A stretch of 64,000 nucleotides of DNA from Escherichia coli (GTDB taxonomy: Bacteria > Pseudomonadota > Gammaproteobacteria > Enterobacterales > Enterobacteriaceae): assembly GCF_001677475.2 (NCBI RefSeq), contig NZ_CP015229.1; one strand, given 5' to 3'. A program made the position numbers and the translations under genes. Below the pieces are notes generated by a model. That model worked only from the letters and a program-made list of their open reading frames with translations, searched no databases and was not told where the DNA came from. Shown piece after piece: positions 40,663 through 57,187 of this stretch. The first letter of the stretch is position 1. Every line of letters begins with the position of its first letter.

Positions 40663-40770
40663 TTAATTTTCAATGCAGCATCGCCATCCTTTCCCTAGGT
40701 GAGCGATGCTGCCGATGGCGCAGGCTTAAGATTCTACCGTCTTACCTGCTATAGCTCTCTCTTTTTACCA

Positions 40771-42309
40771 TCACCCAACACCTTTCGCTGTAAACGGCGG
40801 TTTCGCAAACCAAACCAATACCGTAAGTAAGATAAAAGCAATAGCCGCCATACGGAAAATCTCATTTGCAGAAATTGAAAGTGACTGCTGAGTTATTTCA
40901 TTATTAATTTCATTAAGAACCCCTGAAAGCGAACCATAGTATTTATCCATAATTTGTGACGATGAATTAAACACGGGGTTAAATTGATCGATTGTTGCTG
41001 TCAACTGACTATGGTGTAATGATTCTCGGCGTCCCCACAGCGTCATTGTCAACGACGTACCAACGGATCCTGACAAGGTACGAAAAAAATTACTCATACT
41101 CGAGGCATTGGCAAATTTATTATCTGGCAAACCTGAAAACGAAATCGTTGTTAAGGGTAAAAAGAAACAGGCGACGGCGAATCCCTGAAAAAACTGTGGC
41201 AAAATGATGCCTGTAAAATCAATCGTTGGCATAAATGTCACAGAACGCCAGTAATAGCAAACCGCATACATTAAAAAACTAAATGTCACCAACAACCGCA
41301 TATCAATTTTGTTGCCATAACGTCCTATCAAAGGTGATATTAATAGCGGCATGATGCCGATGGGCGCATAGGCAAGTCCGGCCCATATCGCATTATACCC
41401 CATCGTTTCCTGGAGTAACTGCGGCATAAGGACTATCGCCCCAGAGTAAAATAAATACGCGCATGTGATACTCACAATACCAATGGTGAAATTACGGGAC
41501 TTAAACAAACTGAGATCAAGAATCGGATTCTCTGAGGTCGACTCCCAAATGACTAAAGAAATCAGAGAAATAACTGACACTACTGTTAGTATTATTATTG
41601 TACTCGAGTTGAACCAATCCAGATCGCGCCCTTTATCAAGCATTATCTGCAAGCCACCAACACCGAGCACTAACAGGGTCAGTCCTGGTAGATTCATTTT
41701 GACCGGTGAAGTCTCAGTTTCTCTTCCTTTAAGTAAGGTTAAGCATAATGTCAGAACGATAATCCCCATAGGGACATTGATTAAAAATATCCAACCCCAG
41801 CTAAAGTTGTCACAAATATAGCCGCCCAATATCGGCCCACATATCGGAGCGATAATTACGGTCATTGACCATAATGCCAAAGCAAATGTTCTTTTTTCTG
41901 GCGGATAATTCCTTAATAATAAACTCTGTGACAGTGGAATTAACGGCCCCGCCATTAACCCCTGAACGACTCTAAAAAATATCAACACATCAAGATTGGT
42001 CGATAGGCTACACATTAATGAAGACAGCGAAAAAAAGGTTACTGAAAGTAAAAATAATCTTAATTCGCCTATTCTTTGTGCCAGCCTGCCGGTAACAGGG
42101 ATCGCAATGGCATTTGCTACGCCAAACGAGGTGATAACCCAGGTGCCTTCGTCTGTTGATGCTCCCAGAAAGCCAGATATTGTCGGTATTGCGACGTTAG
42201 AAATAGTGGAATCCAACATTTGCATAAACGTCGCTAATGACAATGCAATAGTGACGCACCATAACGTCCCACCGGTTAATGGTGCCGGAGTTGATTTAGT
42301 GATTGCCAT
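40771..42309 (-). CDS. emrY: MFS multidrug efflux pump (EmrB paralogue)
   Basis: 512-aa 14-TM ORF; start overlaps emrK stop. Confidence 0.9.
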   Translation of the reverse strand: MAITKSTPAPLTGGTLWCVTIALSLATFMQMLDSTISNVAIPTISGFLGASTDEGTWVITSFGVANAIAIPVTGRLAQRIGELRLFLLSVTFFSLSSLMCSLSTNLDVLIFFRVVQGLMAGPLIPLSQSLLLRNYPPEKRTFALALWSMTVIIAPICGPILGGYICDNFSWGWIFLINVPMGIIVLTLCLTLLKGRETETSPVKMNLPGLTLLVLGVGGLQIMLDKGRDLDWFNSSTIIILTVVSVISLISLVIWESTSENPILDLSLFKSRNFTIGIVSITCAYLFYSGAIVLMPQLLQETMGYNAIWAGLAYAPIGIMPLLISPLIGRYGNKIDMRLLVTFSFLMYAVCYYWRSVTFMPTIDFTGIILPQFFQGFAVACFFLPLTTISFSGLPDNKFANASSMSNFFRTLSGSVGTSLTMTLWGRRESLHHSQLTATIDQFNPVFNSSSQIMDKYYGSLSGVLNEINNEITQQSLSISANEIFRMAAIAFILLTVLVWFAKPPFTAKGVG

Positions 42310-43472
42310 TAAAGTTGTCCATTATGCGAAATAATGTTGCTAATTTCTTTTTCTATCGGACTGGTATCGATAACTAAAGCCTTACTGGTATAAGCCGGCA
42401 TGGACGTCACGGTTGAAGCCAGATCAGGCATCTCAGCAATGTCTTCGTCCTTCGTATCAATAGTTGCAGTCATCGATAAACCAATGCGCAAGGGGTGTTC
42501 CATGAGTTCTTTTGGATCAAGAGAAACTTCAACCGGTACACGCTGAACGATTTTGATCCAGTTCCCTGTCGCATTTTGTGCAGGTAATAAGGAGAACGCA
42601 TTGCCGGTTCCCATATTGATCCCTGTCACCCGGCCATGAAACACAACATTCTCACCATAAAGATCGCTGATAATATTGACCGATTGACCAATCCGTACAT
42701 CCGTGAGTTGTGTTTCTTTAAAGTTGGCATTAACCCACATTTGACGTGCCGGTACGACAGCCATTAACGATTGTCCGGGACTCACTGTTTCGCCGACCTG
42801 AACACTTCGCTGGGCAATATAGCCGGTAACCGGACTCTTAATATCCGTACGTTTAAGCGCCAACCAGGCTTCTTTGGTTGCATCCGCAGCTTCAACGACT
42901 TGTGGCTGACGGTTTAATGGTGTGTTCATTACTAAAGCTTTATTCGCTTTATAAGCCTGGATAGCGGCATTCAATGCCGCTTTGCTACTTATTAACGTAT
43001 CTTTGGTATGCTCCAGCGTTTCTTTTGAAATAACCCCCTGCTTCGCTAACGGCACTCGACGGTTATAATCTTCTAAAGATTGTTGATACTGAATACGTGC
43101 TGAAGCGACTTCGGCACTGTATTGTTTATCCTGTAAGTATAGTTTATTCGTTTGCCGAACAATATTTGCCAGATTATTTTTAGCTTTATTGAGTGCGATA
43201 GTGGCATCAGTTTTATCCAGTGAAACTAAAATGTCACCTTGTCGAACGTAGTTCGTATCTTTATGATTAACTACAGTGACACTACCTGAGACTTGTGCAG
43301 AAATTGGATCTGCATTCCCCGTGACATAGGCGTCATCTGTACTAATCATGTCTTCTAATTCCATTGACCAATAGGCATAGGCACCTGAAAACGCAATAAA
43401 TAAAACTACCGCCAATAAAGAAAAGTATTTTCTTCTGTTAGAATGTTTTTTATTTGAATTAATCTGTTCCAC
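42309..43472 (-). CDS. emrK: membrane fusion protein of EmrKY efflux system
   Basis: 387-aa ORF with N-terminal TM anchor and coiled-coil / HlyD-like region. Confidence 0.9.
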   Translation of the reverse strand: MEQINSNKKHSNRRKYFSLLAVVLFIAFSGAYAYWSMELEDMISTDDAYVTGNADPISAQVSGSVTVVNHKDTNYVRQGDILVSLDKTDATIALNKAKNNLANIVRQTNKLYLQDKQYSAEVASARIQYQQSLEDYNRRVPLAKQGVISKETLEHTKDTLISSKAALNAAIQAYKANKALVMNTPLNRQPQVVEAADATKEAWLALKRTDIKSPVTGYIAQRSVQVGETVSPGQSLMAVVPARQMWVNANFKETQLTDVRIGQSVNIISDLYGENVVFHGRVTGINMGTGNAFSLLPAQNATGNWIKIVQRVPVEVSLDPKELMEHPLRIGLSMTATIDTKDEDIAEMPDLASTVTSMPAYTSKALVIDTSPIEKEISNIISHNGQL

Positions 43473-43645
43473 TATTATCTCTCATTTCGCATAGATGAAA
43501 TTTATGAATTGAATGAAAAGAGTATTCATTCTTCATATCAAACACAGTGCATGTGTTGCACATTATCCCAGGAACGTTGGAGGCCTAATTTAAATGAGGT
43601 GCAAAAAAAACAACAGAGGACTAAACCGTGGCTTTTGCAATACAA

Positions 43646-43663
43646 TTCTTACGCCTGTAGGAT
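43646..43663. promoter_or_regulatory. EvgA box-like inverted repeat in emrK-evgA divergent region
   Basis: TTCTTACG-CC-TGTAGGAT resembles the EvgA consensus TTCYTACA-N2-TGTARGAA. Confidence 0.55.
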
Positions 43664-43887
43664 TAGTGAGAAGACTTATAGTGCTAATGTGAAACTATAA
43701 ATCATCGGTACAATCCCTGATTTTATTGTTGACATTTCATATATGCCGACTATTTATATGGTATACTTGTCGAATTATCTTAAAGGAAGCTCAAATTTTC
43801 TTATTTTTATTGAGAAAATGAGATGATGCCTTATGTCTGTATTACTACAGGGAGAAGGGAGATGCTTCATTGCAAAGGGAATAATCT

Positions 43888-44502
43888 ATGAACGCAATAA
43901 TTATTGATGACCATCCTCTTGCTATCGCAGCAATTCGTAATTTATTGATCAAAAACGATATTGAAATCTTAGCAGAGTTGACTGAAGGCGGAAGTGCCGT
44001 TCAGCGGGTGGAAACACTTAAGCCTGATATCGTCATCATTGATGTCGATATCCCCGGAGTTAACGGTATCCAGGTGTTAGAAACGCTGAGGAAGCGCCAA
44101 TATAGCGGAATTATTATTATCGTCTCCGCTAAAAATGACCATTTTTACGGGAAACATTGTGCTGATGCTGGCGCTAATGGATTCGTGAGTAAAAAAGAAG
44201 GCATGAACAATATCATTGCGGCTATTGAAGCTGCAAAAAATGGCTACTGCTATTTCCCCTTCTCTCTCAACCGGTTTGTTGGAAGTTTAACGTCCGACCA
44301 GCAAAAACTCGACTCCTTATCGAAACAAGAAATTAGTGTCATGCGGTATATTCTTGATGGCAAGGATAATAATGACATTGCTGAAAAAATGTTCATCAGC
44401 AACAAAACTGTCAGCACGTATAAAAGTCGCCTGATGGAAAAATTAGAATGTAAATCACTGATGGATCTTTACACATTCGCGCAACGTAACAAAATCGGCT
44501 AA
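43888..44502 (+). CDS. evgA: NarL/FixJ-family response regulator
   Basis: 204-aa ORF MNAIIIDDHPLAIAAIRNLLIKNDIEIL... with receiver domain and C-terminal LuxR HTH. Confidence 0.94.
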   Translation: MNAIIIDDHPLAIAAIRNLLIKNDIEILAELTEGGSAVQRVETLKPDIVIIDVDIPGVNGIQVLETLRKRQYSGIIIIVSAKNDHFYGKHCADAGANGFVSKKEGMNNIIAAIEAAKNGYCYFPFSLNRFVGSLTSDQQKLDSLSKQEISVMRYILDGKDNNDIAEKMFISNKTVSTYKSRLMEKLECKSLMDLYTFAQRNKIG

Positions 44503-44506
44503 TCAC

Positions 44507-47500
44507 ATGAAGTTTTTACCCTATTTTTTTCTTCTCTGTTGTGGTCTTTGGTCGACCATAAGTTTCGCAGACGAAGATTACATCGAATATCGTGGCATCA
44601 GTAGTAACAACCGTGTCACACTTGATCCACTACGTCTGAGCAACAAGGAATTACGTTGGTTAGCGAGCAAAAAAAATCTTGTGATTGCAGTACACAAGTC
44701 CCAAACGGCTACGTTGTTGCATACCGATTCGCAGCAACGGGTTCGTGGTATTAATGCTGATTATTTAAATCTTTTAAAAAGAGCGTTAAATATCAAATTA
44801 ACACTCCGGGAATACGCCGATCATCAAAAAGCAATGGACGCGCTGGAAGAAGGTGAAGTCGATATAGTGTTATCACATTTAGTTACTTCGCCGCCTCTTA
44901 ATGATGACATTGCTGCAACCAAACCACTGATAATTACCTTTCCGGCGCTGGTCACCACCCTTCACGATTCAATGCGACCGCTTACCTCATCAAAACCAGT
45001 AAATATTGCTCGAGTAGCAAACTATCCCCCTGACGAGGTAATTTATCAATCATTTCCAAAAGCAACAATTATCTCTTTTACAAATTTATATCAGGCATTA
45101 GCATCCGTCTCAGCCGGACAGAATGATTACTTTATTGGTAGTAACATCATTACCAGCAGTATGATTTCCCGCTATTTCACTCACTCCTTAAATGTAGTGA
45201 AATATTATAACTCACCGCGTCAATATAATTTTTTCTTGACCAGAAAAGATTCAATCATTCTTAATGAAGTACTCAATCGATTTGTTGATGCTTTAACAAA
45301 TGAAGTTCGCTATGAAGTATCACAAAATTGGCTTGATACAGGAAACCTGGCCTTTCTGAACAAGCCATTAGAACTCACTGAACATGAAAAACAGTGGATT
45401 AAGCAGCATCCCGATTTAAAGGTGCTGGAAAATCCTTACTCGCCCCCCTATTCTATGACGGATGAAAATGGCTCGGTTCGGGGCGTTATGGGGGATATTC
45501 TTAATATTATTACCTTGCAAACAGGTTTAAATTTTTCTCCGATCACCGTTTCACACAATATCCATGCTGGAACACAGCTGAATCCCGGCGGATGGGATAT
45601 ATTACCCGGTGCTATTTATAGTGAAGATAGAGAAAATAATGTTTTATTTGCTGAAGCCTTCATAACAACGCCTTACGTTTTTGTCATGCAAAAAGCGCCT
45701 GACAGTGAACAAACATTAAAAAAAGGAATGAAAGTTGCCATTCCATATTATTATGAGCTGCATTCGCAATTAAAAGAGATGTATCCGGAGGTAGAGTGGA
45801 TAAAAGTCGATAACGCCAGCGCTGCATTTCACAAGGTCAAGGAAGGTGAACTTGATGCTCTGGTCGCGACACAGTTAAATTCGCGTTACATGATCGACCA
45901 TTACTATCCTAATGAACTGTATCATTTTCTTATTCCCGGCGTTCCGAATGCATCGCTTTCGTTCGCTTTTCCTCGCGGAGAACCGGAACTTAAGGATATT
46001 ATTAATAAAGCACTGAATGCAATCCCCCCAAGCGAAGTTCTGCGCCTGACGGAAAAATGGATTAAAATGCCCAATGTGACCATTGACACATGGGACCTCT
46101 ATAGCGAGCAATTTTATATTGTTACGACATTATCCGTTTTATTAGTTGGCAGTAGCCTTTTATGGGGATTCTACCTGTTACGCTCAGTTCGTCGTCGTAA
46201 AGTCATTCAGGGTGATTTAGAAAACCAAATATCATTCCGGAAAGCGCTCTCGGATTCCTTACCGAATCCAACTTATGTTGTAAACTGGCAAGGTAATGTC
46301 ATTAGTCATAATAGTGCTTTTGAACATTATTTCACTGCGGATTACTACAAAAATGCAATGTTACCATTAGAAAACAGTGACTCACCCTTTAAAGATGTTT
46401 TTTCTAATGCGCATGAAGTCACAGCAGAAACGAAAGAAAATCGAACAATATACACACAGGTATTTGAAATTGATAATGGCATCGAGAAAAGATGCATTAA
46501 TCACTGGCATACATTATGCAATCTGCCAGCCAGCGATCATGCTGTTTATATTTGTGGTTGGCAAGATATTACCGAGACGCGTGATTTAATTCATGCACTC
46601 GAAGTAGAGAGAAATAAAGCGATCAATGCAACTGTCGCAAAAAGTCAGTTTCTGGCAACAATGAGTCACGAAATAAGAACACCAATAAGCTCCATTATGG
46701 GCTTCCTGGAACTTCTGTCGGGTTCTGGTCTTAGCAAGGAACAACGGGTGGAGGCGATTTCACTTGCCTACGCCACCGGACAATCACTCCTCGGCTTAAT
46801 TGGTGAAATCCTTGATGTCGACAAAATTGAATCGGGTAACTATCAACTTCAACCACAATGGGTCGATATCCCTACTTTAGTCCAGAACACTTGTCACTCT
46901 TTCGGTGCGATTGCTGCAAGCAAATCGATCGCATTAAGTTGCAGCAGTACATTTCCTGAACATTACCTGGTTAAGATCGACCCTCAGGCGTTTAAGCAGG
47001 TCTTATCTAATTTACTGAGTAATGCTCTCAAATTTACCACCGAGGGGGCAGTAAAAATTACGACCTCCCTGGTTCATATGGATGACAACCACGCTGTTAT
47101 CAAAATGACGATTATGGATTCTGGAAGTGGATTATCACAGGAAGAACAACAACAACTGTTTAAACGCTATAGCCAAACAAGTGCAGGTCGTCAGCAAACA
47201 GGTTCTGGTTTAGGCTTAATGATCTGCAAAGAATTAATTAAAAACATGCAGGGCGATTTGTCATTAGAAAGTCATCCAGGCATAGGAACGACATTTACGA
47301 TCACTATCCCGGTAGAAATTACCCAACAAGTGGCAACTGTCGAGGCAAAAGCAGAACACCCCATCACACTACCTGAAAAGTTGAGCATATTAATCGCGGA
47401 TGATCATCCGACCAACAGGCTATTACTCAAACGCCAGCTAAACCTATTAGGATATGATGTTGATGAAGCCACTGATGGTGTGCAAGCGCTACACAAAGTC

Positions 47501-48100
47501 AGTATGCAACATTATGATCTGCTTATTACTGACGTTAATATGCCGAATATGGATGGTTTTGAGTTGACTCGCAAACTCCGTGAGCACAATTCTTCCTTAC
47601 CCATCTGGGGGCTTACAGCCAACGCACAGGCTAACGAACGTGAAAAAGGGTTAAATTGCGGCATGAACTTATGTTTGTTCAAACCGTTGACCCTGGATGT
47701 ACTGAAAACACATTTAAGTCAGTTACACCAGGTTGCGCATATTGCACCTCAGTATCGCCACCTTGATATCGAAGCCCTGAAAAATAATACGGCGAACGAT
47801 CTACAACTGATGCAGGAGATTCTCATGACTTTCCAGCATGAAACGCATAAAGATCTACCCGCTGCGTTTCATGCACTAGAAGCTGGCGATAACAGAACTT
47901 TCCATCAGTGCATTCATCGCATTCATGGTGCGGCTAACATCCTGAATTTGCAAAAGTTGATTAATATTAGCCATCAGTTAGAAATAACACCTGTTTCAGA
48001 TGACAGTAAGCCTGAAATTCTTCAGTTGCTGAACTCTGTAAAAGAACACATTGCAGAGCTGGACCAGGAGATTGCTGTTTTCTGTCAACAAAATGACTAA
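44507..48100 (+). CDS. evgS: hybrid sensor histidine kinase (periplasmic sensor domains, HisKA/HATPase, receiver, HPt)
   Basis: 1197-aa ORF; H-box ATMSHEIRTPISSIMGF, receiver domain LSILIADDHPTNRLL, C-terminal HPt. Confidence 0.94.
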   Translation: MKFLPYFFLLCCGLWSTISFADEDYIEYRGISSNNRVTLDPLRLSNKELRWLASKKNLVIAVHKSQTATLLHTDSQQRVRGINADYLNLLKRALNIKLTLREYADHQKAMDALEEGEVDIVLSHLVTSPPLNDDIAATKPLIITFPALVTTLHDSMRPLTSSKPVNIARVANYPPDEVIYQSFPKATIISFTNLYQALASVSAGQNDYFIGSNIITSSMISRYFTHSLNVVKYYNSPRQYNFFLTRKDSIILNEVLNRFVDALTNEVRYEVSQNWLDTGNLAFLNKPLELTEHEKQWIKQHPDLKVLENPYSPPYSMTDENGSVRGVMGDILNIITLQTGLNFSPITVSHNIHAGTQLNPGGWDILPGAIYSEDRENNVLFAEAFITTPYVFVMQKAPDSEQTLKKGMKVAIPYYYELHSQLKEMYPEVEWIKVDNASAAFHKVKEGELDALVATQLNSRYMIDHYYPNELYHFLIPGVPNASLSFAFPRGEPELKDIINKALNAIPPSEVLRLTEKWIKMPNVTIDTWDLYSEQFYIVTTLSVLLVGSSLLWGFYLLRSVRRRKVIQGDLENQISFRKALSDSLPNPTYVVNWQGNVISHNSAFEHYFTADYYKNAMLPLENSDSPFKDVFSNAHEVTAETKENRTIYTQVFEIDNGIEKRCINHWHTLCNLPASDHAVYICGWQDITETRDLIHALEVERNKAINATVAKSQFLATMSHEIRTPISSIMGFLELLSGSGLSKEQRVEAISLAYATGQSLLGLIGEILDVDKIESGNYQLQPQWVDIPTLVQNTCHSFGAIAASKSIALSCSSTFPEHYLVKIDPQAFKQVLSNLLSNALKFTTEGAVKITTSLVHMDDNHAVIKMTIMDSGSGLSQEEQQQLFKRYSQTSAGRQQTGSGLGLMICKELIKNMQGDLSLESHPGIGTTFTITIPVEITQQVATVEAKAEHPITLPEKLSILIADDHPTNRLLLKRQLNLLGYDVDEATDGVQALHKVSMQHYDLLITDVNMPNMDGFELTRKLREHNSSLPIWGLTANAQANEREKGLNCGMNLCLFKPLTLDVLKTHLSQLHQVAHIAPQYRHLDIEALKNNTANDLQLMQEILMTFQHETHKDLPAAFHALEAGDNRTFHQCIHRIHGAANILNLQKLINISHQLEITPVSDDSKPEILQLLNSVKEHIAELDQEIAVFCQQND

Positions 48101-48104
48101 ATAG

Positions 48105-48138
48105 CGGCTCCCACAATATTCAAATGTGGGAGCTATTT
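48105..48138. terminator. bidirectional terminator between evgS and yfdE
   Basis: gctcccaca-atattcaaa-tgtgggagc hairpin between two convergent genes. Confidence 0.6.
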
Positions 48139-48155
48139 ACCAGCACATCTTACAT

Positions 48156-49301
48156 TTATGATGAGAACTCCTGGCGAATTTGTTCCCCATGCTGGTCGAG
48201 CGTTGCCGCTCCCGGCATAACATGCGGGTCCGCGCAGCCGCTGATTTTTATCGGATTACCCGGCATCATTATTCCCCCGGCTTCAATCAACATATTTCTC
48301 GCCTGAGTTTGTGGCAAATTAATGGCCTCAGCCACACTTAATAACGGCGCGACGGGCACACCAACTTCATGTATTTTGGCTAACCAAACTTCAGCTGCCT
48401 GCGTTTTTAACATCCGCTCAATATATTGTTTAAGAGTAGCCTGGTTTTGTACGCGTAAAATATTGCTGCTAAATCGGGGATCATTAACCAGTTCCGTAAG
48501 CTCCAGTGCCTGGCATAACGCAGAGAAAAGCTTGTCATTACCACAACAAATCGTAATCGGCTTATCCTGAGTATCGAAAACATCAAAAGGTGCCATGTAG
48601 GGATGGCGATTTCCCAGGCGTTGTGGTGACTTCCCTGTCGCAATATATGCCATCAGACCATGCTCCAGAAAACTCAGCGTGGCATCAAACATCGCTATAT
48701 CGACATGCGCCCCTCTCTGGCTCTTTTCGCGGCCATAAAGTGCACTTACTATTCCACTGAATAAATAGACACCGCCACATAGATCCGCAAGAGAAGTACC
48801 AACGCGCACTGGCGGAGCATCAGGGTATCCCGTTTCCATCATTATCCCGCTCATTGCCTGAATGATGGTATCGTAGGCAGGAGCATCTTTTAGCGGACCG
48901 GTATGTCCGAAACCTGACGATGAAGCATATATGAGGCGCGGGTTGATTTCTTGTAACCTTTCCCATGAAAACCCCAGTTTTTCCATTGTACCTGGGCGAA
49001 AATTCTCAGCTAATACATCAGCTTGTTTGAGCATATTTATAAATATACTTTTATCGTGATCATTCTTTAAATCAAGAACCACACTCTCTTTGCCATGATT
49101 AATAAAACTGTAATAGAGTGACTGTCCATCCACATAGGGACCAAATGTGCGGGTATCATCACCATGACCCGGCGGCTCAACTTTAATTACCCTTGCACCC
49201 ATATTACAAAGAAGTTGAGTTCCGAAAGGTCCATTAAGGACATGTGTCATATCGATAACTAATAAGCCTTCAAACGGCCCTTTGCTTTCATTATTTGTCA
49301 T
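48156..49301 (-). CDS. yfdE: acetyl-CoA:oxalate CoA-transferase (family III CoA-transferase)
   Basis: Start placed at MTNNESKGPFEGLLVIDMTHVLNGPFG (381 aa); track ORF has a 13-codon upstream extension. Confidence 0.88.
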   Translation of the reverse strand: MTNNESKGPFEGLLVIDMTHVLNGPFGTQLLCNMGARVIKVEPPGHGDDTRTFGPYVDGQSLYYSFINHGKESVVLDLKNDHDKSIFINMLKQADVLAENFRPGTMEKLGFSWERLQEINPRLIYASSSGFGHTGPLKDAPAYDTIIQAMSGIMMETGYPDAPPVRVGTSLADLCGGVYLFSGIVSALYGREKSQRGAHVDIAMFDATLSFLEHGLMAYIATGKSPQRLGNRHPYMAPFDVFDTQDKPITICCGNDKLFSALCQALELTELVNDPRFSSNILRVQNQATLKQYIERMLKTQAAEVWLAKIHEVGVPVAPLLSVAEAINLPQTQARNMLIEAGGIMMPGNPIKISGCADPHVMPGAATLDQHGEQIRQEFSS

Positions 49302-49374
49302 TTGCTTATGCCTTGAAAAAAGCCGAAGGTGAAAAGACACTTCGGCATTTATGTAAAATCAATAACATGATTAA

Positions 49375-50319
49375 TTATGAAACCAGTCGACTGACATAAA
49401 TCCACAAGGGAGCCGTGACGACAAAACCCAGTACGCTCACAGCCAATGACGCTGTACCTGTGCGGGTGTAGACATTAAACCGGCTGGCAATAATGATTCC
49501 GGAGAATGCCGGCGGTAATGCGCCTGCCAGTACCATCATCTGCAAATGTTCGCTGTTCAGATGACATGCCATACCAACGAGAAGCAGCGCCAGTGGCATC
49601 AGAATCAGCTTCAGGAAGGTGTTATAAGCAATTTCGGCACTGAACTCGAATTTATGTGCAGCCAGAGTCAACCCCGCAGCGAATACCGCTACCCCTGAGT
49701 TAGCCTTCGCAATCAGATTAAAGGTTGGGTCCCATGCTGCCGGAATTTTTACCCCAACCAGCACCAGGATCGTTGCCAGAACAGGTGCCCATACTACTGG
49801 CTCCTTTGCCGCAGAAATTAATGCGCTCAGATTACTATTCTTCTTACCATCCGCTCCTGAGGAAGGATTCAGCAAATACAGACCAATAGGAATAGTAATT
49901 GCGTTAACAATAATAGAAATAATTGCTACCACTAAACCTGTTGATACGGAATCACCATAAATAGGATCGAGAACTGCAAACCCCAGGAATCCAATGGTAG
50001 GTGAACCTGCAATTAATGCACATACTGCTGCTTCTGCATGGGTACGTTTAAAAAATTTGTAGCAACCGAACCAGGAGAAAAAGAAACATCCGACAATAAC
50101 CACAAGTGATACAAGGGTCAGACGAGTGTCCGCAAAAATCATTTCCCTGTTTGCCCGGGTAATAGATACAAATAGAGCCGCAGGAAGCGCGTAGTTTAAT
50201 ACCAGTTTATTAAATGCCCGAGCTTGATCTTCTGAAAATGTTTCTCGTCTGCCGCTAAAATAACCCAACAGCATGATTACGATAATAGGCAATAAATCGC
50301 CAATAAAAAATGTTAGCAT
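49375..50319 (-). CDS. yfdV: AEC-family transporter
   Basis: 314-aa polytopic membrane ORF between oxc and yfdE. Confidence 0.88.
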
Positions 50320-50388
50320 AATAGTATTTCCGATAAGGGTCCCCTCACCATCGCATAATGAGTTGGCAAGAGGAGACGATGTCAGTAT

Positions 50389-52083
50389 TTAATTACCAGC
50401 GACTTGTTTTGGGTTCAGTTTGGTAATATGGCCACTTTCAGTTCCTGCTGCAGGGTCGATGACCACATTAATAATGGTCGGTTTGCGCGACTGAATACCG
50501 GTGGTTAAAGCATGACGAAGTTCATCTGTCGTGGTGACGTTATAGCCAACACCACGAAACGCATCCATTAATTTGTCATACCTTGCATGGTGCAACAGAT
50601 CCGTTGGTGATGGTGCACCAGCGCCACTGAGATCAACACCGTCTCCTCTGTAGATGCCGCCATTATTAAAAATAACGATCGTCACCGGAAGGTTATATCG
50701 ACAAATCGTTTCAATCTCCATCCCACTGAAACCAAAAGCACTATCACCTTCAATGGCGACAACTGGAGAACCAGAGGTCACGCTAGCACCGATGGCATAG
50801 CCCATACCGATGCCCATGACACCCCAGGTACCACAATCCAGACGACGACGAGGTTTATACATATCAATAATATTTCGTGCATTATCCAGGGTATTTGCAC
50901 CTTCATTAACTAAATAAATATCCTGGTTCTCGCGCAATACATCGCGCACAGCACTTAATGCATTAAAGTAATTCAATGGTTGGGTATCTGTACTTAATTT
51001 TTCATGCATTTTTTGTGCATTTTGCTGCTTGTGGATATTTAAAATATCGCGCCACACCAGTGGAGTCGTAAATGTGTTTTGTTTCAATTCTGCCAGCATA
51101 CCTTGCATACTGGATGCAATATCACCAACGACTGGCACTGCAATGGGGCGGTTGCTGTCAATTTCCTGCGGTTCAATATCCAGTTGAATAAACTGTGTAT
51201 CTGCCGCCCATCCTTTTTTACCGTGTGCCAATAACCAATTCAGTCGTGCACCAACAAGCATGACAACGTCAGCATTTGCCAGGGCAAACGAACGCGCAGC
51301 TGCCGCAGAAAGTGGATGCGTATCTTCAAGGATCCCTTTCGCCATAGACATTGGCAGGAATGGAATCTGAGCACTTTCAATAAATTCACGAAGCTGTTCA
51401 TCAGCTTGTGAATACGCCGCGCCTTTGCCAAGGATAATTAATGGCCGTTCAGCTTTTGCTAAAAGCGAAATTGCGCTAGTGACTGACTTCGGGCATGGCA
51501 ATAATGCTGGCGACGGATTTTCAACTTTAACAATCGTGGTTAACGCTTCGTCTTTTTCCATCGTCGCGGCCAGGACATTTGCTGGCAAATCAAGATAAAC
51601 TCCGCCAGGGCGACCCGATACTGAGACCCGGATAGCGCGTGCCAATGCAATGCCAAGATCCTGCGGCTGATTAACGCGGAATGCTGCTTTGGCATACGGT
51701 TTTGCCGCATTCATTTGGTCCAGCTCTTCATAATCACCTTGTTGTAAGTCGACGATCGCGCGGTCGCTGGAGCCGCTAATCATGATCATCGGAAAACCAT
51801 TTACCGTTGCGTTGGCCAATGCGGTCAAACCATTAAGGAATCCTGGCGCAGACACTGTCAGGCAGATCCCCGGTTTTTGGGTAAGAAAACCGCTTGCCGC
51901 AGCGGCATAGCCTGCCGACTGCTCATGACGAAAACCAATATAACGAATGCCTTCCGCCTGGGCATGGCGTGCCATATCCGTCACAGGAATACCTACAACA
52001 CCATAAATAGTGTCAATATTATTCTGTTTTAATGCTTCAACGATGATATGCATACCATCTGTCATTTGAAGTTGATCTGACAT
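50389..52083 (-). CDS. oxc: oxalyl-CoA decarboxylase (ThDP-dependent)
   Basis: 564-aa ORF MSDQLQMTDGMHIIVEALKQNNIDTIYGVVGIPV... with ThDP-binding motif GDSAFGFSGMEIETICRYNLPVTIVIFNNGG. Confidence 0.93.
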   Translation of the reverse strand: MSDQLQMTDGMHIIVEALKQNNIDTIYGVVGIPVTDMARHAQAEGIRYIGFRHEQSAGYAAAASGFLTQKPGICLTVSAPGFLNGLTALANATVNGFPMIMISGSSDRAIVDLQQGDYEELDQMNAAKPYAKAAFRVNQPQDLGIALARAIRVSVSGRPGGVYLDLPANVLAATMEKDEALTTIVKVENPSPALLPCPKSVTSAISLLAKAERPLIILGKGAAYSQADEQLREFIESAQIPFLPMSMAKGILEDTHPLSAAAARSFALANADVVMLVGARLNWLLAHGKKGWAADTQFIQLDIEPQEIDSNRPIAVPVVGDIASSMQGMLAELKQNTFTTPLVWRDILNIHKQQNAQKMHEKLSTDTQPLNYFNALSAVRDVLRENQDIYLVNEGANTLDNARNIIDMYKPRRRLDCGTWGVMGIGMGYAIGASVTSGSPVVAIEGDSAFGFSGMEIETICRYNLPVTIVIFNNGGIYRGDGVDLSGAGAPSPTDLLHHARYDKLMDAFRGVGYNVTTTDELRHALTTGIQSRKPTIINVVIDPAAGTESGHITKLNPKQVAGN

Positions 52084-52136
52084 GATTAATAACCTCGAAA
52101 TTTTTATAAATTGGGAGCCAGAAGCCCCCGTTAATA

Positions 52137-53387
52137 TCAGATGGCGTGGTTTTGCTTCATTGCAGCAATTTCATCGTCGCTATAACCCAGCTCCTGCAAT
52201 ACAGCTGCGGTATGTTCACCTAATAGCGGCGCAGCTTTAATATCCGGCGTAAAGGCAGAGAATTTCATTGGACAACCAACTGTCAGATATTTTCCACGCA
52301 ACGGTTGTTCCACTTCAACAACACTGCCACTTTGGCGCAAAGAGGGATCTAGTGAAATTTCTTTCATACTTAAAACCGGTGCGCAAGGAATATCAAACTG
52401 AGTCAAATAGGCCACCGCTTCATGTTTATCAATAGTGACAGTGTATTTTTCGATTTCAGCAAAAATATCGAAAATATGTGGCTGTCGGGCATGGGCTGTA
52501 CTGTATGCCGGATCGGTAATCCATTCTGGTTTGCCGATGGCTTTACAGGTGTTTTCCCAATTTTGCTCCTGAATAGTGAAATAAATATAGGCGTTAGGAT
52601 CGGTTTCCCAGCCTTTACATTTCAGGATCCAGCCAGGCTGACCACCACCACCCGCATTACCACCGCGGGGAACTGCATCACCAAATGTACCATTCGGATA
52701 CTGCGGGTATTCTTCCAGATAACCCAATTTATCGAGACGCTGCTGGTCGCGTAATTTCACGCGGCAAAGGTTCAACACGGCATCCTGCATTGACATAGTG
52801 ACTCGTTGCCCACGCCCCGTTTTTTCGCGATGCAGCAAGGCAGCAAGTAAACCGATCAGCAAATGCATTCCGGTGTTGCTGTCACCCAACGCTGCAGCGC
52901 TTACCAGCGGCGGACCGTCCCAAAAACCCGTAGTAGATGCCGCGCCACCCGCTGCCTGAGCAACGTTTTCATAGGCTTTTACATTCACATAAGGCGAACA
53001 CTCATCAAACCCTTTGATCGAACCAAAAATCAGACGTGGATTGATTTCTTGAATATGCTCCCAGGTGAAGCCCATATGATCAATGGCCCCTGGATGAAAG
53101 TTCTCGACTAAGATATCAGCTTCGCGGATCAGCTTTTCCATTACCTCTTTGCCTTCCGCTGTTTTGGTATTTAATTCAATAGAACGTTTATTACTGTTAA
53201 GCATGGTGAAGTAAAGCGCATCGATATCAGGAATATCTCGCAGCTGGTGACGCGTTACGTCACCAACGCCGGGACGTTCAATTTTAATGACATCAGCGCC
53301 AAACCAGGCCAGCATCTGAGTACAAGATGGGCCAGATTGCACACCGGTGAAATCGAGAACTTTAATTCCTTGAAGTGGAGTTGACAT
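52137..53387 (-). CDS. frc: formyl-CoA:oxalate CoA-transferase
   Basis: 416-aa [46 protein letters not shown]... Confidence 0.93.
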
Positions 53388-53638
53388 AGCAATACCTATT
53401 AGTTAATTAAATATGTGTTAATTTAGCGTTTATTTAAGGCATAACGCCCTCTATAAATAATCCGCAAAATATCGTCGTAGCTGCACTCGATATTTTTAAA
53501 TTACTGTATCAAGTGCTGAAAATCATTTCATCGCTACTTCCAATTCCTTTCTGCATGGTAAGTAGTGAGGACGAAAAGAAGAATATGATAAATATTGGTT
53601 CGCGGTAATCAGAGAGAACCGCGACATTTGTGATGTTA

Positions 53639-53656
53639 TTCTTACAACTGTAAGAA
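53639..53656. promoter_or_regulatory. EvgA box (perfect consensus) upstream of frc operon
   Basis: TTCTTACA-AC-TGTAAGAA: exact match to TTCYTACA-N2-TGTARGAA, about 250 bp upstream of the frc start. Confidence 0.65.
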
Positions 53657-53899
53657 GCGCCGGTGATTGACAGGTAAGGGTATGATTACGCTTTTTAAAG
53701 CGTACCATAAAACATAACATAATAAATGATTTGTGATGACACGGGATTATTGCGGTTTAATTTGAGGAATATAAAATGCGAGTTTATAGCACCGCGAGCG
53801 CCAAATAATTTTATGACCACAACCTGTCGTATTGTGGTCATAAAAAATTGTCGGCTGGAGGGAGTTAAATCCTTTACCTCGATGTACTGCCTGTCAGCA

Positions 53900-54532
53900 T
53901 TAGTTCACAAACAGTGCTTCACTATCGACGATGATTCCATCTTCCGCACCTTTAAGCGCCAGATTTGCCTCGTAGTATTGCTTTTTATCAAGCAGTTTCT
54001 GCGCATCAGCAAGTGCATTACGAGTCTGTTTAAGCGGCATCAGATATTGGTTTTCCATTACGCCAACACCGGCCAGGCGAAGCTCTTCCATTGCGCCCTT
54101 TTTATCCCCTTTCGCCATTTTTTCATTGGCAATTTTTATCGCGGCTTCTTTTTCGGGTGTCGCTACATAACTCTCAGAAATTCCGACAGATGCATTAATG
54201 ACAATATATTGGTCATCATTGAGATTGGTCTTTTTACCTGGCTTAGCGAACTTTGCCCATTCGGTACTGTCATCTGACAACAAAGCGGAAGCTTCATTGG
54301 TCAGTTCTTTTGCCTTTTCTGGATCGCCATGAAACAGAGCCAGGCGCGCTACCTGCACGTCACGCATCGCATATAAACCTTGTTCAGAGATACGCTCTGC
54401 TGCTGCCGTTTTCTGGGTTTGCTGAACTTGCTGAGCTTGCTGTTGTGCCGCTACCGGTGCATTATCAGCAGCCCATACAGTTGAAGATGCCAGAATTGCT
54501 GTGACCATCGTAGCCATAATTAAACGTTTCAT
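53900..54532 (-). CDS. yfdX: periplasmic YfdX-family protein
   Basis: 210-aa ORF with signal peptide [26 protein letters not shown]... Confidence 0.9.
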
Positions 54533-54628
54533 ACTTACCTCATTCTTTAACAGTTTTAGAAAACGCCGCCATCATATTGGGTGAGCATGAAATGAGAAAT
54601 CAGAGAGCAACGGTCATTTTGAAAGGGT

Positions 54629-54646
54629 TATCTTACAGTTGTAGTT
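54629..54646. promoter_or_regulatory. EvgA box-like site upstream of yfdX (distal)
   Basis: ATCTTACA-GT-TGTAGTTA: partial match to the EvgA consensus. Confidence 0.45.
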
Positions 54647-54667
54647 ATTATCGCAAGAAGTATTTTA

Positions 54668-54685
54668 GTCTTACAATTGTAGGAA
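54668..54685. promoter_or_regulatory. EvgA box-like site upstream of yfdX
   Basis: GTCTTACA-AT-TGTAGGAA: 15 of 16 match to the EvgA consensus. Confidence 0.6.
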
Positions 54686-54827
54686 TATGCTTCCTGTCAC
54701 AGAGAACTATTCTTATGTACCACAAAGAGATGTAATTTATTATATCGATGTAAATATTGATTAATTATATGTAAATACAGCCATAACATCGTACATTCTC
54801 AGTGAACCATTTTCAGGATAACTTTCT

Positions 54828-55103
54828 ATGAAAGTAAACTTAATGCTTTTTAGCTTATTTTTATTGGTCTCTATTATGGCATGCAATGTTTTTGCATTTT
54901 CCATTTCTGGTGGTGGAAGTGAGAGGAGCTATAAAGAGACTGAAAAAACATCAGCGATGACGACAACTCACTCTACAAAATTTCAGCCATCACAGGCGAT
55001 TTTGTTAAAAATGAGAGAAGATGCGCCACCATTAAACCTCACAGAAGAAATCACGCCCACTTATCCGACAAAGGCGAGTTATCTTATTCATCCTTTGCGA
55101 TAG
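54828..55103 (+). CDS. ypdI: small secreted protein / putative lipoprotein
   Basis: 91-aa ORF MKVNLMLFSLFLLVSIMACNVFAFS... with signal sequence and Cys. Confidence 0.8.
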   Translation: MKVNLMLFSLFLLVSIMACNVFAFSISGGGSERSYKETEKTSAMTTTHSTKFQPSQAILLKMREDAPPLNLTEEITPTYPTKASYLIHPLR

Positions 55104-55179
55104 CGTCTGTCACATGGCAGGTGAACAATCATGTCTGATGCTGATGTGAACACCTGCCCAAATGAGCCATCCTGACCCA

Positions 55180-55422
55180 CTATCGCCTGCCATACCCCAC
55201 CATAAAGCGAATCATCAAGCCACAAGCCGGGGCAAGAAACATAAATATCCCCGTCACCAGTTCATTACCGCCAGTTAACCACATGGTGAAGTAATAAATG
55301 AGTGCAGCGAGGATCACCATGCCGAAGAAAGAAGAGACCGCCGATACCACGTTCAGTACCTGACCGATGTAGCCGCTGACGCAGACAATACACAGGGCGA
55401 GAAACATCCATAAATAAATCAT
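55180..55422 (-). CDS. yfdY: small inner-membrane protein
   Basis: 80-aa ORF with two predicted TM helices (MIYLWMFLALCIVCVSGYIGQVL...). Confidence 0.8.
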   Translation of the reverse strand: MIYLWMFLALCIVCVSGYIGQVLNVVSAVSSFFGMVILAALIYYFTMWLTGGNELVTGIFMFLAPACGLMIRFMVGYGRR

Positions 55423-55774
55423 AGCTCAACCTCCTGCCGCGCTAAAAAACCTGTAACTTCAGTCACTTTAATAGTAAGACAATCCTTAACCTCTGGCAAT
55501 TTTTGCTAAGCATCAATGAAAACAATATGTTAAATGCAAGACTGTTATGCACGGAAAAATATTTACTTTGCACGATTAATAATCAGTAGCTGAAAGCAGT
55601 CAGCGAGTGATAAAGTACAAATACCGCATTCATGCTCCTCGTGGTTATGTCCTGACTAGTCTTTACACTCTTTACAGGAACCATTGTCGTACATGATGGC
55701 CTAATCAATTGAGTGTACCGCTGTCGACATGGAATCTTCTGCGATACAACAATTCGTATCTACAGAAGGTAACT

Positions 55775-56695
55775 ATGTTTCCACAATGCAAATTTTCCCG
55801 CGAGTTTCTGCATCCTCGCTACTGGCTCACATGGTTTGGGCTTGGTGTACTCTGGCTTTGGGTACAGCTTCCTTATCCTGTTCTCTGCTTTCTCGGCACG
55901 CGTATTGGCACAATGGCGCGACCATTCCTGAAACGTCGTGAATCTATCGCCCGTAAAAACCTGGAACTTTGTTTCCCGCAGCATTCTGCTGAAGAGCGCG
56001 AGAAGATGATTGCCGAAAACTTTCGTTCACTCGGCATGGCGCTGGTAGAAACCGGCATGGCATGGTTCTGGCCCGACAGTCGCGTACGTAAATGGTTTGA
56101 TGTTGAAGGGATGGATAACCTTAAACGCGCACAAATGCAAAATCGCGGCGTAATGGTTGTCGGCGTCCATTTTATGTCGCTGGAACTGGGCGGTCGCGTG
56201 ATGGGACTTTGCCAACCAATGATGGCCACCTATCGTCCCCATAATAATCAGCTGATGGAATGGGTGCAGACCCGTGGTCGCATGCGCTCTAACAAAGCGA
56301 TGATCGGCAGAAATAATCTGCGCGGCATTGTCAGTGCACTGAAGAAAGGTGAAGCGGTATGGTTTGCTCCCGATCAGGATTATGGTCGTAAAGGCAGCTC
56401 CTTCGCGCCGTTCTTTGCGGTGGAAAATGTCGCCACAACCAATGGCACCTATGTCCTCTCTCGTCTCTCTGGCGCAGCCATGTTGACCGTAACGATGGTA
56501 AGAAAAGCGGATTATAGCGGATATCGTTTGTACATCACCCCAGAGATGGAAGGCTACCCGGCAGATGAAAATCAAGCCGCTGCCTATATGAACAAGATTA
56601 TCGAGAAAGAGATCATGCGCGCACCGGAGCAGTACCTCTGGATCCACCGTCGCTTTAAAACGCGCCCGGTGGGAGAATCGTCGTTATACATTTAA
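55775..56695 (+). CDS. lpxP: lipid A palmitoleoyltransferase (cold-induced late acyltransferase)
   Basis: Start placed at MFPQCKFSREFLHPRYWLTWFGLGVLWLWVQLPYPV (306 aa); track ORF has a 22-codon extension; LpxL/LpxM/LpxP-family sequence. Confidence 0.9.
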   Translation: MFPQCKFSREFLHPRYWLTWFGLGVLWLWVQLPYPVLCFLGTRIGTMARPFLKRRESIARKNLELCFPQHSAEEREKMIAENFRSLGMALVETGMAWFWPDSRVRKWFDVEGMDNLKRAQMQNRGVMVVGVHFMSLELGGRVMGLCQPMMATYRPHNNQLMEWVQTRGRMRSNKAMIGRNNLRGIVSALKKGEAVWFAPDQDYGRKGSSFAPFFAVENVATTNGTYVLSRLSGAAMLTVTMVRKADYSGYRLYITPEMEGYPADENQAAAYMNKIIEKEIMRAPEQYLWIHRRFKTRPVGESSLYI

Positions 56696-57050
56696 CAAAC
56701 TGCTCTCACTCTTTCCCTCCTCAAATCAGCCATAATAACCTCATGGTTTTTATGGCTTTTTTCTTAAGGTTTTTTCCTTCGCTGAATATCTAATTATTAC
56801 CGTCAGAAATTAAACTGTCGCCGATATGAGACACCTGTAAGTTACTAAAAGTAAATAAGAAAATGCCTCTTGTCTCGTTTCAGTTTTAGGCGTACATTAG
56901 CGCCGTCTCGAGCAGTTTAGCTCAGAATTCTGGGGTGATGCCCACGGTAAAATACAGGACTTTTAAGGTCGTATTGCCCGGTGTCAACTCACTGTATCAG
57001 GTGTGATGAAGTCATTCAGGCGTAACAGTAATTACGCGGAGAGATGTAAA

Positions 57051-57122
57051 GTGAAATATTTCTTTATGGGCATTTCTTTTATGGTCATCGTTTGGGCCGG
57101 TACTTTTGCCCTGATGATCTAA
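57051..57122 (+). CDS. ypdK: 23-aa small membrane protein
   Basis: GTG-initiated 23-codon ORF (V)KYFFMGISFMVIVWAGTFALMI*, a single hydrophobic helix, preceded by ggagag; too short for the ORF track. Confidence 0.6.
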   Translation: MKYFFMGISFMVIVWAGTFALMI

Positions 57123-57139
57123 AAGCAAACTGTGCAATG

Positions 57140-57172
57140 AAAAACAGGAGCCATCAGGCTCCTGTTTGCATT
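57140..57172. terminator. bidirectional terminator between ypdK and alaC
   Basis: aaacaggagcc-atca-ggctcctgttt perfect 11-bp stem with U-rich flanks. Confidence 0.7.
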
Positions 57173-57187
57173 TCTGACGACGGTTTT

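Follow-up and report, generated by a model that had tools for sequence, protein, structure and literature searches.

EvgA-type inverted repeats upstream of frc, yfdX and ypdI in Escherichia coli, and a conserved hairpin downstream of yfdX

Three 18-bp inverted repeats in the frc-yfdX-ypdI region of Escherichia coli are EvgA-type sites in EvgA-controlled promoters, and they are the same as, or include, sites that have been published, with EvgA binding and direct activation known from the literature for yfdX and frc. We consider it highly probable that the three repeats are dimer sites of phosphorylated EvgA (EvgA~P) for three promoters, and that a hairpin at the 3' end of the yfdX mRNA ends or stabilizes this transcript. 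Judging from promoter layout, from the joint absence of this box and ypdI in some loci, and from co-expression, the better of the two boxes that had been assigned to yfdX most likely drives the oppositely oriented ypdI. Sequences, statistics, conservation and shared layout come from the present analysis, co-expression from published data.

The window (the whole stretch of 64,000 nucleotides that was analyzed) is the Escherichia evgAS / yfdE-yfdV-oxc-frc / yfdX / ypdI locus. The gene for EvgA, a NarL/FixJ-type response regulator, also lies in the window, about 10 kb upstream, and 295 bp separate yfdX from ypdI. The features discussed below are collected in Table 1.

Table 1. Genes, EvgA boxes, promoter elements and hairpin, in positions of the window (offset-25 element, half-site-like sequence 25 nt past a box)
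Feature	Position	Strand	Description
emrK-evgA spacer box	43646..43663	.	TTCTTACGCCTGTAGGAT; fourth match, internal positive control
frc	52137..53387	-	formyl-CoA transferase; leads frc-oxc-yfdV-yfdE; ATG at 53387
frc -10 hexamer (predicted)	53580..53585	-	TATTCT; TATTAT in Yersinia-type loci
frc offset-25 element	53606..53613	-	TCTGATTA; exactly 25 nt past the frc box
frc EvgA box	53639..53656	.	TTCTTACAACTGTAAGAA = TTCTTACA-AC-TGTAAGAA; perfect 8-2-8 inverted repeat
Hairpin	53809..53845	-	15-bp stem, 7-nt loop, tail UUAUUUGG; 3' end of yfdX mRNA
yfdX	53900..54532	-	periplasmic YfdX-family protein, 210 aa
yfdX -10 hexamer (predicted)	54571..54576	-	TATGAT; TAnnAT invariant in six lineages
yfdX offset-25 element	54597..54604	-	TCTGATTT; exactly 25 nt past the proximal box, yfdX direction
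Proximal box	54630..54647	.	ATCTTACAGTTGTAGTTA; 3 mismatches; proposed to serve the yfdX promoter as EvgA box
Distal box	54668..54685	.	GTCTTACAATTGTAGGAA; 1 mismatch; proposed to serve the promoter of divergent ypdI as EvgA box
ypdI offset-25 element	54711..54718	+	TCTTATGT; exactly 25 nt past the distal box, ypdI direction
ypdI -10 hexamer (predicted)	54738..54743	+	TATTAT; conserved
ypdI	54828..55103	+	91-aa putative lipoprotein; divergent from yfdX; EvgS/EvgA-responsive

Boxes were searched as the 18-bp inverted repeat TTCYTACA-NN-TGTARGAA. With up to three mismatches, the 64-kb window contains four matches against 0.59 expected, and none of 100 shuffles reached four. A preliminary description of this DNA had claimed an exact consensus match upstream of the frc operon, and the frc box indeed shows 0 mismatches to TTCYTACANNTGTARGAA. 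The consensus used there also proved sound: with two mismatches at most, the pattern is found in K-12 upstream of safA, ydeP, yegR and emrK/evgA, and K-12 has identical boxes at the orthologous positions. Masuda and Church in 2003 and Itou et al. in 2009 reportedly described the 18-bp repeat upstream of ydeP, safA-ydeO, yegR, emrK, yfdX and frc. There is no categorical difference between the published EvgA box and the repeats seen here, which agree in sequence pattern, genes and organism group. The region upstream of K-12 gadE has no box with up to four mismatches. A two-mismatch match inside mdtE of K-12 was treated as chance.

A weight matrix was trained on four sites outside the frc-yfdX-ypdI locus (safA, ydeP, yegR, emrK). 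It scored the frc box at 22.4 bits (300 simulated windows peak at 21.1), the distal box at 14.5 bits and the proximal box at 12.1 bits; for the latter two scores, 0.13 and 0.5 sites, respectively, are expected in a window. The three sites rank second to fourth in the window, behind the emrK-evgA training box, and the next site reaches 9.0 bits. Such a matrix check, which had been suggested with the preliminary description, recovers all three boxes from external sites, with the proximal score alone at chance level window-wide; the proximal box is therefore not significant by sequence alone. Both matches reported upstream of yfdX exist, the proximal one a single base away from the register given before (54629-54646).

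EvgA control of this region, as asserted in the preliminary description, agrees with the literature, where it is published for the oxalate/acid-resistance genes frc and yfdX. A passage of PMC3720670, citing Masuda & Church 2003, reports EvgA-bound inverted repeats upstream of yfdX and yfdW/frc. [quoted passage not shown] In an evgS-constitutive mutant, log2 expression rises by 8.37 for frc, 6.97 for yfdX and 2.75 for ypdI (PMC4283999 supplement). The EvgA iModulon includes b2376 (ypdI), yfdX and frc (PMC10833566 supplement), and ypdI was induced 5.5-fold along with the EvgA regulon (PMC5811628). Because control of yfdX and frc by EvgA through inverted repeats is published, the core finding is known already.

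Beyond the boxes themselves, we found a common, rigid promoter layout, in which the box is followed after 25 nt by TCYNAT and about 22 nt further by a -10 hexamer. TCYNAT stands exactly 25 nt past the box in the gene-ward direction for six of seven Escherichia boxes and in the reverse direction for none of the seven (base rate 0.003 per position), and a TAnnnT hexamer is present at index 28-29 after each offset-25 TCYNAT. The full layout leads from the frc box to frc, from the proximal box to yfdX, and from the distal box to ypdI; it is absent from the distal box toward yfdX and from any box in the reverse direction. It recurs in Yersinia-type loci, in locus L090 and in Buttiauxella, and the linker between box and TCYNAT varies freely, in 12-17 of its 25 columns. 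A 42-column downstream matrix from four training sites was noisy and failed to tell the frc promoter apart from background; it was replaced by a short fixed-offset element test, in which only the offset-25 element discriminates. Neither this proposed layout nor the suggested assignment of the distal box to ypdI, both read from sequence, was found described in the literature searched.

Conservation was assessed in six lineages, with YfdX identity down to 68%. Half-sites of the boxes are conserved, versus 73-79% variable columns in the remaining spacer, and the 2-bp centre is variable in both columns in the frc and proximal boxes. For the frc box, 3/16 half-site columns are variable versus 193/264 in the remaining spacer (Fisher p = 2e-5). 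The offset-25 element of frc is half-site-like, overlaps the frc -35 region and is near-invariant across the six lineages (the L005 variant is TCCGATTA). The frc box is centred 260.5 bp ahead of the frc ATG and, with transcription predicted to start near 53573 after which a leader of about 186 nt (53388-53573) would follow, at about -74 relative to this predicted start. A divergent plus-strand promoter from the frc box was rejected, as this box lacks an offset-25 element on that side. Among the matches listed in an Frc-based genome scan, most were distant oxalate degraders; the informative ones were one other Escherichia lineage plus Moellerella and Providencia, and no box was present in either of these two genera.

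The preliminary description had assigned both spacer boxes to yfdX. Of the two, only the proximal box has a layout that points toward yfdX; the distal box has an offset-25 element and a -10 hexamer only in the direction of ypdI, with transcription predicted to start near 54750. The ypdI element is conserved in K-12 and in L005 and L089. Both boxes might still act on yfdX as tandem EvgA dimers that give strong induction, with the co-induction of ypdI being indirect or due to a shared bidirectional site, a reading that we regard as possible, if clearly the less probable one. It is consistent with yfdX being among the strongest EvgA-induced genes (1000-fold is quoted in PMC6339873), with conservation of both boxes in all four Escherichia lineages, with the modest induction of ypdI, and with the ability of a palindromic site to work both ways. 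Against it, the promoter elements that the distal box lacks toward yfdX are both present toward ypdI, and the two boxes are 38 bp apart from centre to centre, which does not correspond to an integral number of helical turns. Moreover, yfdX promoters of the Yersinia type keep the proximal box only (ypdI and the distal box are both missing from these loci), and L090 and Buttiauxella show one box per divergent gene, the second box with its layout being directed at divergent hdeD (L090 and L092). The loci without a distal box form one related group, and the homology break there could be a mere island boundary. It was also seen that ypdI is induced far less than yfdX despite its better-matching proposed box.

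Assignment of the distal box to ypdI is part of a broader reading, to which we give about even chances: ypdI would be a direct EvgA target via 54668-54685, and a bipartite architecture would be common to Escherichia, Yersinia-type islands, Buttiauxella and Klebsiella-type loci. Within this broader reading, the half-site-like TCYNAT at about -40 could be a second EvgA contact beside RNA polymerase.

A hairpin in the frc-yfdX spacer had been described as a 10-bp perfect stem that probably terminates yfdX. The perfect arms (atgaccacaa/ttgtggtcat) are real and belong to a conserved RNA-type structure; the coordinates given for them (about 53811-53840) were shifted, and the few G-C pairs and weak U-tract make the case for a terminator less strong than that description suggested. 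The arms lie at 53813-53822 and 53832-53841, A-U pairs extend the stem to its full 15 bp, and the stem begins 55 nt past the yfdX stop. Folding of the 111-nt hairpin region yields -33.3 kcal/mol (z = -4.35). In the lineage alignment, the arms are conserved and the loop is variable, with 92% of cells paired. One pair reads AU, GU or GC depending on lineage, and the G·U intermediate, found in L087, is tolerated only in yfdX sense-strand RNA. Covariation support is not claimed, because only one compensatory pair was found, which was not significant versus shuffles. No curated RNA family (Rfam covariance models) matched across 53300-54900; the best score, for mir-6128, was sub-threshold and spurious (27 bits versus a gathering score of 92).

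We conclude that the hairpin is probably a leaky intrinsic terminator or a 3'-end stabilizer. It resembles Rho-independent terminators in having a stable stem-loop after the stop codon and a U-rich tail on the coding strand, and it differs from them in its A-U rich stem (4 G-C pairs of 15), its interrupted tail (UUAUUUGG, 5 U in 8, with UUAUUU as the U-tract) and the poor conservation of this tail, which reads CUCUCUGC in Yersinia-type loci and is absent in L090. These departures would also fit a hairpin that does not terminate, and serves instead as a processing or stability element in one yfdX-frc-oxc-yfdV-yfdE transcript or as a palindromic protein-binding DNA site. Databases list these genes as a single operon, and in the Klebsiella-type locus L091 a spacer of 123 bp, which contains no box, separates yfdX from frc. 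A role other than termination nevertheless seems rather unlikely to us: a permissive terminator scan was passed on the minus strand only, the structure is stable, the G·U intermediate fits only the yfdX sense strand, and frc is provided with a conserved box and a promoter of its own.

The proximal box, with a yfdX transcription start predicted near 54564, is convincing only by the combination of its position, its conservation and the sequence layout downstream of it. Its three mismatches and chance-level matrix score would fit a fortuitous match, with yfdX driven from the distal box alone, perhaps via the extended -10-like TGCGATAAT and with the box overlapping the -35 region. A promoter scan indeed picks out TTGTAA-18-GATAAT, with a TG motif, in overlap with the distal box, and TGnGATAAT is invariant in all lineages. 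We nevertheless judge this very improbable. At the score of the proximal box, the matrix scan translates to about 0.002 chance matches expected inside the 295-bp spacer; half-sites are far less variable than the surroundings (5/16 columns versus 141/179 elsewhere, six lineages, p = 1.5e-4); the box is kept in Yersinia-type and L090 loci, including those where the distal box is missing; and it has the exact box-25 nt-TCTGAT-TAnnAT layout of other EvgA promoters.

Taken as EvgA operators, the three boxes suggest the following sequence of events. Mild acid would activate EvgS and thereby generate EvgA~P, a dimer of which would occupy each of the 18-bp 8-2-8 boxes, whose centres lie at about -74 relative to the presumed starts. 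From there, EvgA~P would recruit RNA polymerase to promoters with a poor -35 region, where TCYNAT at about -40 to -35 resembles a half-site core and the TAnnnT -10 hexamer follows about 22 nt on. Three separate EvgA-dependent promoters would result, for frc-oxc-yfdV-yfdE, for yfdX and for ypdI (from the frc, proximal and distal boxes, respectively). In K-12 coordinates (NC_000913.3), the three predicted starts correspond to about 2493440 for frc, 2494434 for yfdX and 2494620 for ypdI. Most yfdX transcripts would be ended or stabilized at the hairpin, and frc would therefore rely mainly on its own box.

Similar arrangements are known for related regulators. BvgA of Bordetella, the EvgA orthologue, recognizes TTTCCTA-type heptads in inverted orientation, and secondary sites extend as far as the -35 region. 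BvgA sites are like the EvgA boxes in their half-site core (TTCCTA/TTCTTA), and they likewise combine a far-upstream primary inverted repeat with a half-site-like element beside -35. The gap in BvgA promoters is filled by several dimers that bind cooperatively, whereas the 25-nt linker of the EvgA promoters varies freely in sequence. NarL 7-2-7 sites are inverted heptamers 2 bp apart; NarL belongs to the same GerE/LuxR helix-turn-helix family, and its sites share with the EvgA box the two half-sites around 2 unspecified bp, but the half-sites differ (TACYYMT versus TTCYTACA).

In the KvhAS/KvgAS-linked yfdX-hdeDB clusters of Klebsiella and relatives, yfdX adjoins an evgAS orthologue as it does here, and the divergent gene is hdeD. 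The boxes of L090 and Buttiauxella L092 (TTCTGACA-NN-TGTCAGAA) have this 25-nt layout in the direction of either divergent gene, and their half-site differs from that of the EvgA box in having G, not T, at position 5. In K. pneumoniae, unlike here, yfdX together with hdeDB is reported to be regulated through RcsB (PMC6394985), and GTAAGAATAAC at the frc box looks by eye like positions 1 to 10 of the quoted RcsB consensus KMRGAWTMWYCTGS; recognition of the repeats mainly by RcsB or another NarL-family regulator rather than EvgA is nonetheless extremely unlikely, as nothing corresponds to the second half of the RcsB box, the motif is common specifically to promoters of the EvgA regulon, and all these genes respond to the evgS constitutive mutation and together make up the EvgA iModulon.

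What the analysis mainly offers is confirmation: the preliminary description, made without tools, correctly recognized the cis-elements of an acid-response regulon that has been studied well, and the sites show the behavior expected of functional operators. The site that looks weakest, the proximal box, is probably the true operator of yfdX. If true, the assignment of the distal box suggests that ypdI merits annotation as a direct EvgA target. The layout rule shows which way an EvgA box points, and it could sharpen regulon prediction for regulators of the EvgA/KvhA type in other Enterobacterales.

Aligned end to end, positions 42133-60132 of the window and 2482000-2500000 of E. coli K-12 (NC_000913.3) are 97.9% identical. 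Of 5426 complete E. coli genomes, 5416 have the 1440-bp region carrying the sites, at no more than about 98.5% identity to the window. With 40000-52000 tested as well as 53388-54827, identity was at most about 98.6% in all 5,426, so the window would belong to a lineage missing from this set, possibly a Shigella or an unusual Escherichia lineage. YfdX has 210 residues here and 211 in K-12; near-identical homologues in E. coli range from about 192 to 222 aa, as if a repetitive stretch of the protein were prone to indels. That EvgA controls these genes, the core reading of a preliminary description, agrees with published data and is thus established knowledge: inverted repeats bound by EvgA have been reported ahead of yfdX and of yfdW/frc (PMC3720670, citing Masuda & Church 2003), PyfdX, described as "directly activated by phosphorylated EvgA", has served as a reporter (PMC5706723), frc is the most induced gene in an evgS-constitutive mutant (log2 8.37, with 6.97 for yfdX; PMC4283999), and mild acid induces yfdX, frc, yfdV and oxc.

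Coordinates of genes, boxes and associated elements in the window
Feature	Position	Strand	Sequence	Source
evgS	44507-48100	+		K-12 annotation, ORF list
yfdE, yfdV, oxc, frc	frc 52137-53387	-		K-12 annotation, ORF list
yfdX	53900-54532	-		K-12 annotation, ORF list
ypdI	54828-55103	+		K-12 annotation, ORF list
emrK-evgA box	43646-43663		TTCTTACGCCTGTAGGAT	
frc box	53639-53656		TTCTTACAACTGTAAGAA	
Proximal box	54630-54647		ATCTTACAGTTGTAGTTA	
Distal box	54668-54685		GTCTTACAATTGTAGGAA	
Distal box, element toward ypdI	54711-54718		TCTTATGT	
Distal box, hexamer toward ypdI	54738-54743		TATTAT	
frc leader repeat	53466-53474, 53488-53496		AAAATATCG/CGATATTTT	
8-2-8 palindrome	53687-53704		TACGCTTT-TT-AAAGCGTA	
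Mini-ORF	53776-53808	+		
yfdX-frc hairpin	53809-53845	-	UUUUAUGACCACAAU[ACGACAG]GUUGUGGUCAUAAAA, then UUAUUUGG	
Motif upstream of proximal box	54647-54655	-	TGCGATAAT	

The 8-2-8 arrangement of the EvgA box parallels the 7-2-7 sites of NarL, and the half-site core is similar to that of BvgA, the EvgA orthologue. All sequences quoted in the preliminary description are present in the window. The frc box is a perfect inverted repeat centred 260.5 bp from the frc ATG and the distal box has one mismatch, while the proximal box exists but had been placed one base off; in register it has three mismatches. A search of the 64 kb with TTCYTACANNTGTARGAA at up to three mismatches returned four sites (0.59 expected; none of 100 shuffles reached four), the fourth lying in the emrK-evgA spacer. 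The consensus given in the preliminary description also held up, as the pattern occurs at up to two mismatches in the K-12 spacers upstream of safA, ydeP, yegR and emrK/evgA, the other reported EvgA targets. With a weight matrix trained solely on those four K-12 sites, the frc box scored 22.4 bits (above the best of every one of 300 simulated windows), the distal box 14.5 and the proximal box 12.1; the next best site in the window reached 9.0. The proximal score is at chance level for the whole window (0.5 expected), and the chance expectation inside the 295-bp spacer is about 0.002.

In K-12, the mdtE coding region (L004 7887-7904) contains a 2-mismatch match, TTCTTACGCATGAAAGAA, and no match at up to four mismatches was found upstream of gadE, which some lists include among the targets of EvgA. 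A perfect palindrome lies 30 bp from the frc box, on the yfdX side. K-12 has an identical copy, the copies in L005 and L089 are degraded (one change there looks compensatory), and Yersinia-type loci lack it.

The orthologous loci compared come from a distinct Escherichia lineage (L005, DNA about 91% identical), a contig resembling E. coli (L089), Yersinia alsatica together with a related lineage (L085-L088, 82-84% YfdX identity) and a contig at greater distance (L090, 68% YfdX identity); Klebsiella-type and Buttiauxella loci (L091, L092) complete the set. In a six-lineage alignment, 3 of the 16 half-site columns of the frc box were variable, versus 193/264 in the remaining spacer (p = 2e-5); for the proximal box the figures were 5/16 and 141/179 (p = 1.5e-4). 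The two central positions were free in both boxes (AC, GT, GC, CG and GA were seen), which is exactly the expectation for an NN spacer. Among the frc-scan matches listed, Moellerella and Providencia had the frc cluster and no box, and unrelated frc loci (about 700 kb) gave no match at up to three mismatches. Directly upstream of the proximal box, TGCGATAAT resembles an extended -10 element or an operator extension; TGnGATAAT is invariant in five of the six lineages, L090 retaining only TGTGATA, and is also kept in lineages without the distal box and ypdI. At L085 1-12615 (Yersinia alsatica) and L087, the whole yfdX-frc-oxc-yfdV-yfdE-evgS module lies beside a phage-type integrase and an IS1 fragment, and YfdX is 84% identical to that of the window, which suggests that the EvgAS acid-resistance island has been transferred horizontally.

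When all EvgA target promoters were anchored on the box, an element fitting TCYNAT was found exactly 25 nt past it (TCCTATTT at safA, TCTTATTT at ydeP, TCCTATTC at yegR, TCTGATTA at frc, TCTGATTT at yfdX from the proximal box and, as a near miss, TCCTCTGT at emrK), with a TAnnnT hexamer at index 28-29 counted from this element. Six of seven Escherichia boxes had TCYNAT at offset 25 toward the gene, versus none of seven in the reverse reading; every other offset gave at most one match in the gene direction, and local intergenic DNA has the element at a base rate of 0.003 per position. Element and hexamer stay conserved between lineages as the 25-nt linker drifts, and the layout recurs at the frc gene of Yersinia-type and L090 loci and at the yfdX gene of Buttiauxella and Klebsiella-type loci. 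The emrK-evgA box has it toward emrK only (hexamer TAAATT) and not toward evgA. If the hexamers are -10 elements, box centres would lie near -74, and starts are predicted at about 53573 (frc), 54564 (yfdX) and 54750 (ypdI). The predicted frc leader of about 186 nt (53388-53573, minus strand) is nearly invariant within Escherichia over its first 75 nt or so, and holds an inverted repeat with conserved arms and a variable loop that could be a regulatory leader structure.

Both spacer boxes had been described as lying upstream of yfdX. The proximal one fits yfdX; the distal one, the better match of the two, shows the layout in the ypdI direction and not in the yfdX direction, where offset 25 reads ACAACTGT. 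Yersinia-type loci have no ypdI, and E. coli homology there starts exactly at TTTGCGATAATAACTACAGCTGTCAGATAA, so that the proximal box is kept and the distal box is missing. In L090 and Buttiauxella the divergent neighbour is hdeD, and the canonical layout is found in the hdeD direction from a second box (TCTTATAT and TCTTATTT). Published data show ypdI induced 5.5-fold alongside yfdX, yegR, ydeO, emrK, frc and oxc (PMC5811628), raised by log2 2.75 in the evgS-constitutive mutant (PMC4283999), and, as b2376, a member of the EvgA iModulon (PMC10833566). Together, these observations indicate that one match probably serves yfdX and the other ypdI, with the caveat that all loci without a distal box belong to one related group. 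That both boxes serve yfdX appears rather unlikely on this evidence, although ypdI induction is far weaker than that of yfdX and a palindromic site could act in both directions.

A 10-bp stem said to probably terminate yfdX was found (arms 53813-53822 and 53832-53841) and extends to 15 bp. The 111-nt hairpin region has z = -4.35 versus shuffles, and a permissive scan for terminators accepts the hairpin on the minus strand only, that is, in the yfdX sense. Its arms are conserved and its loop variable across lineages, with 92% of cells paired in the given register versus 33-52% with the partner slid. At one pair, A-U, G·U (L087) and G-C (L090) were all seen, which is compatible solely with sense-strand RNA; covariation is limited to this single pair and is not significant versus shuffles. 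A-U pairs predominate in the stem, and the U-tract is weak and not conserved. The hairpin is read as a terminator that leaks or an element that stabilises the 3' end. Such a reading is consistent with frc possessing a box and a promoter of its own, and also fits the literature, which varies between yfdX plus yfdWUVE and one operon (PMC3720670, PMC10833566). The Klebsiella-type yfdX-frc spacer (L091 5625-5747) is just 123 bp long and has no EvgA-type box, hence the separate Escherichia frc promoter is not universal; a different 9-bp hairpin is present there. An Rfam scan of 53300-54900 gave no family match. A mini-ORF of 10 codons (MRVYSTASAK), which has a Shine-Dalgarno-like GAGGA and runs antisense to yfdX and frc, ends 1 nt short of the hairpin; it is kept in L005 as MRFYRTASTK, with two synonymous and three non-synonymous changes, and is possibly due to chance.

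The boxes are known EvgA sites, and among known systems the EvgA box itself is the nearest. What is added here is modest, namely corrected coordinates, a fixed promoter layout, and the probable assignment of the distal box to ypdI.
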